From the NCBI GenBank assembly GCA_964016885.1, contig OZ024741.1:327794001-327858000 (forward strand): DNA of 64,000 nt, written 5' to 3'. Of this stretch, positions 55,965 to 57,700 are shown one piece after another (the first letter of the stretch is position 1; every line of letters starts with the position of its first letter). The translations under genes and the position numbers were made by a program. This DNA comes from Eledone cirrhosa (Eukaryota). Below the pieces are notes generated by a model that saw nothing but the letters and a program-made list of their open reading frames with translations, ran no database searches and was not told where the DNA came from.

Positions 55965-56685
55965 GAGAAAGTTTAAAAGTAAATTTCAAAAAGTTCACTG
56001 TACTTACTATATGTGCCTTTACTGCGGTTTCCGATCCCAAAATAAACAGATAGTCCAAGCGAATTCCTCATTGAGAAAGAGATCTTCGTCAGAAGGCTTT
56101 TCTCGCTCGGAGAATATCAAAATCTCGAGTTCGAATCACAAACTGGCGCCATACAAAACTGTTCCCGAATGAGAGTGAATGAGAGAAGAAACAATCTTGT
56201 CTAGTTCCGTGTGCAAAGACAGAAAGCAGGGCAGCCAGGTCAATGTCCTGCTACGAAAAACAGCAGCTGTTCAAACGACCAAAAGTCTTCTCAAACTTAG
56301 GGGACAATAACAATAAAAGTATGTGTTCCTACATGTAAAAAATACATATAGGGATACAAGTATTGTCCACCCGTATATCAGTGTGGTTCTATGAGAGGTT
56401 AATAAATTAACAAGCCAGAACATACAAAATCAAGGTTTAGCAAATAGAGAAAAAGTTTTAAAATAAATTTCAAAAAAGTTCACTGTATTTACTATATGTG
56501 CTCTTACTGCGGTTTCCGATCCCAAAATAAACAGATAATCCAAGTGTATTTTTTCATTGAGAAAGAGATCTTCGTCAGAAGGCTTTTCTCGCTCGGAGAA
56601 TATAAAATTCTCGAGTTCGAATCACAAACTGGCGTCATACAAAACTGTTCCCGCAGCCCTGCTTTCTGTCTTTGCACAATGCACT
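55965..56685 (-). mobile_element. Retrozyme-like tandem element, 485-bp unit, about 1.5 copies (family H4a)
   Basis: Direct repeats; hammerheads at 56015-56097 and 56500-56583; no protein-like ORF. Confidence 0.7.
56015..56097 (-). ncRNA. Type I hammerhead with long helix II (H4a)
   Basis: gcctt CTGACGA a gatctc..(about 45 nt)..gggatc g GAAA ccgcag TA aaggc. Confidence 0.7.
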
Positions 56686-57074
56686 AGAAAAGATTGTTTC
56701 TTATATGCACGTATATATATATGCTTATATATATAAGTATATATATATATATATATATATATATATATATATATATATATAGTAGTAAAAAGAATATCCA
56801 AAGGGCAAGAGCACTGAGGCCCGTGAGATGAACTGCTATATACAAATGAATTAGTTTACTACAAGTGCATAACGTGAATTGAACAGTTGCTGTCATATAA
56901 TACACTAACCAAACTGGTGTATGTCGTTATTCAATCGTTATAATAAACTAATTTAATTGAATATGTATATATATATATGTGTGTGTGTGTTTATATGTGT
57001 GTGTCTATGTATGTATGTATATATATATATATGTGTATATATATATATATATATATATATATATATATATATAT

Positions 57075-57700
57075 ATATATAAAATCAAGGTTTAGCAAAT
57101 AAGAAAAAGTTTTAAAATAAATTTTAAAAAGTTCACTGTACCTGCTGTAATTACCCTTACCGTACGGTTTCAAGTCTCAAAATAAATGGATAATCCATGC
57201 GGAAAATCCATTGAAAAGGAAGACTCTCGTCAGAGGGTTCTTTTCACCCGGAGAATATAAAATTCCCGAGTTCAAATCACGATCTGGCGCTATTAAAACT
57301 TGTTCCCGAGATGAGAGTGTATGATAAAGAAGCAATTCTGTCTAGTGCCGTGTGCAAAGATAGAAGGCAGAGGCGGAAAGGGCAATCTACTTCCACTAGA
57401 AATAGCAGCAGTTAAAACGACCAAAATGTTATCTCGACCAGGGGAGATTAATAATAATAAAGTATGTATCCCTACATGCAAAATACATATAGGGACACAT
57501 GTATTATTCAACTGTATGCCAATGTGGTTCTATGGCAGGTTAATAAATTAACGAGCCGGAATATATATAATCAAAGTTTAGCAAATAAGAAAAAGTTTTA
57601 AAATATATTTTAAAAAGTTCACTGTACCTGCTGTAATTACCCTTACCGTACGGTTTCAAGTCTCAAAATAAGTGGATAATCCATGCGGAAAATCCATTGA
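57075..57700 (-). mobile_element. Retrozyme-like tandem element, 486-bp unit, about 1.3 copies (family H4b)
   Basis: Diverged paralogue of 55965-56685; hammerhead at 57153-57238 and a truncated copy at 57639-57700; (TA)n on both sides. Confidence 0.72.
57153..57238 (-). ncRNA. Type I hammerhead with long helix II (H4b)
   Basis: accct CTGACGA gagtctt..aatggat..atccatt..gagactt GAAA ccgtacgg TA agggt; perfect palindromic helix III ACCGTACGGT. Confidence 0.8.

Follow-up and report, generated by a model that had tools for sequence, protein, structure and literature searches.

Two hammerhead-bearing repeats of about 485 bp lie close together on the minus strand of the DNA analysed here, a stretch of 64,000 nt from the Eledone cirrhosa genome (the window), and raise the question of what kind of element they represent and by which enzyme they were copied. 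We regard both, termed insertions A and B, as decayed copies of a non-LTR retrozyme, likely copied and inserted by the reverse transcriptase (RT)-endonuclease of a Hydra-clade Penelope-like element (PLE), and assign this reading a probability of roughly 0.8.

Insertion B (57075..57700, minus) is composed of a 57-nt 5'-truncated stub (57644..57700), one 486-nt unit (57643-57158) and an 83-nt tail (57075..57157), and is flanked by (TA)n on both sides. The stub begins within helix II and holds the 3' half of a hammerhead only, lacking CUGACGA and the 5' strand of helix I. Because the ribozyme 5' half is missing at this upstream site (57644), B contains a single complete hammerhead. Its tail past the cut site forms a long hairpin, followed by a short fixed end running into (TA)n. 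Insertion A (55962..56702, minus) starts with an inverted 50-nt piece (56653-56702) and comprises a stub of approximately 150 nt, a 485-nt unit (56504-56020) and a tail shortened to 59 nt, after which (TC)n(TA)n follows. Each insertion amounts to 1.3-1.4 units. The two share 79% identity over 471 nt and are separated by a microsatellite-rich spacer of about 370 nt in a 3.0 Gb genome that is itself rich in microsatellites. The cleavage-site nucleotides at 56020, 56505, 57158, and 57644 (minus) and their spacings of 485 and 486 nt, reported in a sequence-only reading of the window, were found again; the two loci do not represent adjacent arrays, as proposed there, but two separate decayed insertions of a dispersed family. 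Two other two-copy repeats were also observed close to the insertions, one at 58279-58424 and 58716-58861 (spacing 437 nt), in which CUGAUGA is followed by a hairpin and a scan found no canonical GAAA half, the other at 57741-57837 and 58150-58246 (spacing 409 nt).

A 25-nt pattern of the tail has 1,974 exact genomic matches and a strict pattern of the hammerhead core 297, compared to 0 for the reversed control in both cases, and the family is estimated at about 2,000 dispersed copies. DNA searches yielded 2,715 and 2,557 first-look candidates, 40 of which were scored from each. Grouping of 107 full-length units resulted in five groups of at least four members and one pair, 78-94% alike, with A and B corresponding to two of these. 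The two subfamilies postulated for the window thus mark two positions along a continuum that comprises at least five. Unit length varies between 481 and 488 nt at a G+C content of 37-38%, the longest ATG frame of the six subfamily consensuses encodes 44-78 aa, and a tblastn comparison of the unit to nine PLE proteins returned nothing at E<1. Subfamilies evolve as whole units, the least variable part being unit positions 28-135 (11 of 109 columns vary among the six consensuses, compared to about 4 out of 10 elsewhere). Three sister families, C (467 nt), D (485 nt), and E (543 nt), were found in flanking DNA and are 42-61% identical among themselves and to A/B. Family D occurs as near-identical copies, including one array of about 8 units (G000:C3:111824559-111828602; further copies in loci L229-L248), and is the prime candidate for recent retrozyme activity. 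Three contig runs from one sample of unknown kind contain many diverged pieces and are uninformative on expression, strand, and circles.

Non-LTR retrozymes with consensus lengths of 51-972 bp have been described and argued to be non-autonomous PLE derivatives (Li, Clavereau, Pollet; bioRxiv 10.64898/2026.07.22.740005), so that neither the class nor a unit of 485/486 nt is new, contrary to the initial suggestion of an undescribed class of unusual length. The 35 genomes of that preprint include no mollusc. Cervera and de la Pena (2020, PMC7229834) give a unit length of 150-450 bp. In the open literature no paper was found on this family, on the way its helix II is built, on the two hairpins, or on the strict combination of ends described below.

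The complete type I hammerhead of insertion B occupies 57153..57238 (minus), with a predicted cut after A57158. It consists of helix I (57238-57234/57157-57153), the core CUGACGA (57233-57227), helix II (57226-57220/57178-57172), GAAA (57171-57168), and a palindromic helix III (57168-57159). An inner hairpin (57185..57212) prolongs helix II and is the weakest helix, with 84% of cells paired in the alignment described below. The hammerhead of insertion A (56015..56104, minus; predicted cut after A56020) has an A.G opposition at 10.1-11.1, and the one upstream of it (56500..56590, minus) is decayed, with helix I broken and the inner hairpin gone; in both, the helix III palindrome is damaged. CUGACGA cores are situated at 57233, 56578, and 56092 (minus). 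The stem pairs noted previously (helix I ACCCT/AGGGT and GCCTT/AAGGC, helix II GAGTCTT/GAGACTT and GATCTC/GGGATC) recur in our analysis, as does the long helix II, with 54-55 nt between the core halves and the inner AATGGAT/ATCCATT present in B. The helix III difference between A and B had likewise been taken for covariation. The variant ACCGCAGT is a private change of the window A copy, and as the A-subfamily consensus is the palindrome ACCGCGGT, the difference reflects decay instead of covariation. On folding, the lowest-energy structure of the window A copy is not the hammerhead. Rfam hammerhead models gave no match at 55960-57720 with E<=10, only microsatellite noise being reported over both insertions. 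Since the long-armed, pseudoknotted hammerhead escapes these models, families of this type are probably undercounted.

Within the family, all nine consensuses have the CUGANGA and GAAA core, the A15.1-U16.1 pair, an NUH cut site, and three helices. At 10.1-11.1, B-type units and family D have G.U, A-U or G-C, and A-type units and families C and E have A.G, U.G, U.U or C.A. Except for three consensuses with a central mismatch, helix III is a perfect palindrome (6 out of 9); as a monomer it comprises 2-4 bp, and the palindrome fits the dimeric cleavage reported for animal hammerheads (PMC4209133, PMC7229834). For covariation, 46 of 113 distinct A/B-labelled hammerheads, mutually related, all with intact cores and hand-picked to span the subfamilies, were aligned; in this set 91.8% of cells are paired, with 92 double changes. 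Pairing amounts to 96% in helix I, 94% in helix II, 84% in the inner hairpin (the weakest covariation), and 97.5% in helix III, the latter with zero double changes. Given this choice of related copies, counts relative to shuffles do not translate into probabilities. The conserved hammerhead fold with compensatory changes that had been postulated is supported by these 46 copies. The core is retained in 63 of 101 full-length units and the core together with the helices in 59, a share of decay as expected for dead-on-arrival copies. Predicted circular folds reach z-scores of -4.0 (A) and -4.65 (B) on the sense strand relative to 30 dinucleotide shuffles, and of -2.4 and -3.0 on the antisense strand.

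How the units were inserted was addressed by a survey of ends. From the first 100 listed matches of each pattern, in genome order, 60 were taken for the core and 70 for the tail, and 122 insertions were left after duplicate removal. TA-rich 3' ends were observed in 108 of 115 scorable cases, compared to 13% background. The 3' ends lie at unit position 81-83 (short) or 193-198 (long), not at the cut site, and 5' ends are scattered over the unit, indicating variable 5' truncation. Most insertions span 0.1-2 units. Non-inverted copies of the tail set comprise 31 with the short end, 2 with the long end, and 8 with other or cut-off ends. In case of inverted insertions, all 24 of the tail-selected set (after further duplicate removal) combine one short with one long end; in the core set the same holds for 4 pairs, while 5 more have an end of unclassified type, and in a length-selected set of 180 loci the corresponding numbers are 27 and 18. 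Clean short-short or long-long pairs were absent from the 180 loci, approximately four of the unclassified cases being possibly eroded short-short pairs. The insertions show partial tandems, truncated 5' ends, head-to-head inversions, and one-sided tails, of which the tandems, the inversions, and the one-sided tails have been described as PLE traits (PMC8557442, PMC3846280); the ends of the family are variable or internal, unlike those of LTR elements.

Rounds or arms within one insertion differ by about 5%, compared to 8.5% to the median other copy, and are closer to each other in 72 of 86 and 25 of 29 cases. A single template per insertion was not adopted from this, as subfamily structure or gene conversion explains the similarity equally well. 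L1-style twin priming with non-overlapping arms fails, since the arms overlap, and simple fold-back copying fails, since neither arm always contains the other. Because the arms of one insertion overlap, either one RNA was read twice or two RNAs were used.

Main arms cross a cut site in 115 of 122 insertions, and 21 of 122 contain two cut sites. As nearly all copies cross the site, the template was ligated or uncut, i.e., a circle or a multimer, and as most copies are shorter than two units, a linear multimer fits as well as a circle. It could be argued that only uncut linear read-through multimers ever serve as template and that the hammerhead is a weak or protein-assisted passenger, without any circle. 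The RT of the anole Poseidon element used uncut RNA and its hammerhead needed protein (PMC11167929), 8 out of 9 Xenopus retrozyme dimers remained uncleaved in vitro (bioRxiv 10.64898/2026.07.22.740005), and the excess of 5' ends near the cut site is weak (9/86 arms, post hoc p 0.007; 10/155 overall, p 0.08), for which reason a pile-up of 5' ends at this site was discarded as a weak, post hoc signal. We nevertheless consider a purely linear template rather unlikely, given that the core, the helices, the palindromic helix III, and the predicted pseudoknot are kept across families only 42-61% alike, and that coral, mussel, and axolotl retrozymes do cleave and accumulate as circles (PMC7229834). 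A circular template is slightly preferred.

A canonical small loop 2 is absent from the family hammerheads, and a covarying pseudoknot is predicted in its place. In B, the strand TGAAAAG just outside helix I (57240..57246, minus) would pair with CTTTTCA on the 5' side of the helix II internal loop (57212..57218, minus); in A the predicted strands are GAGAAA (56104-56099, minus) and TTTCTC (56078-56073, minus). This flank-loop pairing of 6-7 bp would be a pseudoknot once helices I and II are in place. It is paired in 93.5% of cells of the 46 copies, compared to 30-53% in slid registers. Two columns show compensatory changes, 13-41 (34 G-C, 11 A-U) and 16-38 (32 G-C, 12 A-U), each of which may correspond to one or two events. 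Sister families keep the pairing with other letters, namely ATGGAAA/TTTCCAT in C, GGAAAA/TTTTCC in D, and GAGAAT/ATTCTC in E.

In several folds, these two strands are also paired within another hairpin, in which the core is buried. We presume it unlikely, albeit worth consideration, that the flank-loop pairing of the retrozyme serves as an off-switch, i.e., that a nested hairpin over the core stops the circle from cutting itself. The strands do pair in the lowest-energy folds of the window B circle, the upstream copy of window A, c3, and c4, in which CUGACGA is buried, and as a duplex the pairing contributes no more than about -6 to -8 kcal/mol; however, the lowest-energy folds of families C and E as well as of c0, c2, and c5 keep helices I and II with both strands free, and pseudoknots between stem I and stem II are reported to raise cleavage rates in other hammerheads (PMC3088659). 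The preferred reading remains that of a pseudoknot assisting the ribozyme.

With respect to pseudoknotted hammerheads (Perreault et al. 2011, PMC3088659), the family shares a base-paired contact of the stem I and stem II regions, which here is a predicted one, and with PLE-type hammerheads (Cervera and de la Pena 2014, PMC4209133) a helix I of 4-5 bp and a helix II of 7-8 bp with a loose base at its foot. It differs from those reported in both papers in that the partner strand is the side of an internal loop and helix II continues into a hairpin. Other hammerhead families with a long helix II and a palindromic helix III were observed in loci L037 and L206 (81 nt), L140 (83 nt), L161 (82 nt), L006, L032, and L265 (47-48 nt), and L093 and L098 (30-31 nt); well over a dozen unrelated hammerhead repeats are present in the genome.

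A Penelope-like RT had been named as the possible mobiliser, and insertion anatomy, end pairing, (TA)n targets, and shared hairpins all support this. PLE candidates number 35,016 in searches with a 70-aa piece of a remnant in the window and 10,597 in those for GIY-YIG. Members of the first group carry RWR, DKT, CxCX5C, CxxC, and CxH motifs and lack CCHH, which by these motifs matches the Hydra clade as described in PMC8557442, and the GIY-YIG group is mostly Neptune-type. The remnant in question, a Hydra-clade RT-endonuclease broken by other repeats, is located at 49880-51058 and 47864-47989 of the window (minus); further down, its hammerhead, with a CCGAUGA core and a 20-nt helix II region, and a damaged first hairpin are found. 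A search for a coding parent in 38 Hydra, 50 GIY-YIG, and 182 family loci revealed only short AT-rich matches to the unit in these loci, drawn from the many PLEs of the genome. A 5' flank that seemed to be shared by L162 and L185 turned out to consist of a microsatellite and an unrelated repeat.

A link to one clade is given by two hairpins of the unit. The first, G(U/C)UCUG...CAUUGA(A/G)C, follows directly after the short end, occurs at 76-97 in all nine consensuses, where chance would yield 0.0006 hits per 250 nt, and lies inside the least variable part of the unit. In B it is found at 57527..57561 (unit 82-117, minus) just after the short end point, with its 5' side damaged, and in A, intact, at 56386..56421 (minus). 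The second is located at 196-202 in 7 of 9 retrozyme consensuses, compared to shuffles with about 0.55 hits per whole unit; it is found at 57432..57447 in B (unit ~197, minus), just after the long end point (~57450), and at 56289..56304 in A (minus), partly damaged relative to the consensus. In the Eledone genome, the first hairpin is present at 51-57 in all six Hydra tails that pass the short end at 39-47, and its second pair covaries (8 C-G, 4 U-A in 12 motif-selected rows). Among 78 metagenome Hydra loci, GCUC(C/U)...GAGC occurs on the sense strand in 61, of which 42 contain at least two, and on the antisense strand in 19; in 43 of 44 cases the first motif copy is situated 28-62 nt beyond the cut, and in 35 of 36 cases neighbouring copies are 55-83 nt apart. 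One published Hydra consensus carries the motif as well. Since hairpins following both end points are shared with Hydra-clade elements, the Hydra RT is the likely mobiliser, and we hold the Hydra clade to be the partner of the retrozyme with good confidence. The sampled copies lack autonomous PLE features (an RT and GIY-YIG frame in or joined to the unit) and the family has the (TA)n target and the shared 3' cis hairpins beside its end points, the shared hairpin as a criterion for Hydra dependence being defined by the present analysis.

It is improbable that the mobiliser instead belongs to Neptune or another PLE clade, with the hairpins being inherited remnants or U/A-rich stems that arose by chance. 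A (TA)n target and short and long ends are also seen in several Neptune families that have long open frames, and a loosened hairpin pattern is present in 9 of 11 tails from one Neptune family and in 1 of 3 from another, but the strict form was found in 0 of 78 Neptune tail copies. Moreover, the retrozyme hairpins are located directly after both end points, as is the first one in the Hydra tails of this genome, and no other part of the unit is as well conserved as the hairpin region. We thus continue with the Hydra clade as partner.

Regarding the (TA)n target, the hammerhead followed by a tail, partial tandems, 5' inversions, and the optional tail on one end, the family resembles the Hydra-clade EN+ PLEs of Craig et al. 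(2021, PMC8557442), with which it also has the GCUC...GAGC-type hairpin pair in common. Unlike these, the unit lacks an RT/endonuclease frame and alignable homology beyond the hairpins. The extension from the short to the long end is about 110 nt in the unit and about 160 nt in Hydra of the Eledone genome, and the hammerheads of metagenome Hydra elements (43 in 78 loci) have 10-25 nt between core halves, compared to 50-55 here. In a Hydra-type coding family of this genome (L192:2064-3300, L282, L043, L051, L191), 88-91 nt separate the core halves of the 3' hammerhead, therefore long arms occur in coding relatives, and flank-loop pairing looks possible in this family. A further Hydra family has a hammerhead-like motif with CAGAAGA in place of CUGANGA and a long odd helix III about 950 nt past a Hydra-type stop (L135, L206; window 63540-63565).

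That the unit is a solo pLTR or the truncated 3' end of an unseen coding PLE, never existing as an RNA of its own, is very improbable: its layout equals that of PLE ends, the coding Hydra family represented by L192 has an 88-91-nt helix II, and retrozymes have been proposed to derive from pLTRs (bioRxiv 10.64898/2026.07.22.740005), but upstream of a unit another unit copy is found and no UTR or ORF, two cut sites are crossed in 21 of 122 insertions, a same-strand PLE frame is present in 0 of the 89 non-inverted 5' flanks of the survey, family D is found in arrays of about 8 units, and subfamilies have diverged over the entire unit. Copies continuing into a PLE RT ORF, for which the sequence-only reading had advised a check, were not encountered among these 89 flanks, and none of the copies sampled serves as terminal repeat to a coding PLE.

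For the retrozyme mobilised by Hydra, the following course may be envisaged. A tandem copy would be transcribed and the hammerheads would cut, presumably as dimers via the palindromic helix III and with the pseudoknot replacing the loop 1-loop 2 contact, which we consider fairly probable. The 485-nt monomer would then be closed into a circle by a host ligase, as proposed for other retrozymes (PMC7229834), or uncut multimers would serve as template, the circle being slightly favoured. A dimer of the Hydra protein might bind two hairpins and cut (TA)n DNA, and reverse transcription would begin internally, just 5' of each hairpin, by priming on nicked (TA)n. A single start would lead to a direct insertion of 0.1-2 units, and both starts on two DNA ends to an inverted insertion in which a short end is combined with a long one.

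By analogy, the two fixed ends read as two internal RT starts such as those of the anole Poseidon element PAc, for which two starts past the hammerhead delimit the tail in vitro (Frangieh et al. 2024, PMC11167929). Its protein extends both DNA strands, is predicted to be a dimer, and does not need hammerhead cleavage, and its target is AT-rich as well (PMC11167929). PAc differs in being a coding element of another clade with a 30-40-nt tail, and both of its start sites were used on either strand in vitro, whereas the genomic inversions described here are strictly short plus long (PMC11167929). It is tempting to speculate, with a chance somewhat short of even, that the Hydra dimer clamps two hairpins, each subunit starting reverse transcription before its own, and that retrozymes parasitise it by presenting a hairpin pair on a 485-nt circle. 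If so, the hairpin pair would represent a portable two-part insertion signal with the short-long rule as its genomic footprint, and the circle would be released by a new type of long-armed, pseudoknotted hammerhead acting as a dimer. Animal retrozymes and PLEs have so far been linked by co-occurrence and pLTR similarity, and the protein-binding motif of PLEs has hitherto only been bracketed in vitro; a hairpin pair at two start points would provide a named partner clade and a short RNA.

Compared to metazoan non-LTR retrozymes, the family likewise consists of non-coding units several hundred nt long and low in G+C, each with a single type I hammerhead; a short palindromic helix III, a predicted self-paired circle, and co-occurrence with PLEs are further common features. 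It differs in its core halves, 50-55 nt apart as opposed to a 4-bp helix II with a small loop in the retrozymes described, in the predicted flank-loop pseudoknot in place of their loop 1-loop 2 contact, and in units longer than the 220-390 nt given for coral, mussel, and axolotl. Unlike in metazoan retrozymes, mostly 0.1-2 units are present per insertion, and the partner clade is traceable by shared hairpins.

Apart from this family, hammerhead-like folds in which a U3-A8 core (UUGAAAA/UUGAUAA) replaces C3-G8 were observed at the ends of several Neptune-type PLE families, located in the window at 61835-61865 (minus) and 63192-63225 (plus) and in loci L189, L190, L198, L200, L205, L206, and L207; one U3-A8 pattern has 27 matches in the loci examined. 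Covariation of U3-A8 is known from nature (PMC3088659), and this core seems to be the family norm in those Neptune families here. The Rfam model Hammerhead_HH9 gives a weak match (E 0.011) at 61481-61559 (plus) and at about 61007 (minus), inside nested inverted repeats at 60830-61477; the core is again U3-A8. Broken LINE-type elements with RVT_1 and zf-RVT matches are located in the window at 4924-8334 and at 11689-13136 (minus), and a separate RT fragment is found at 43905-44909 (minus).
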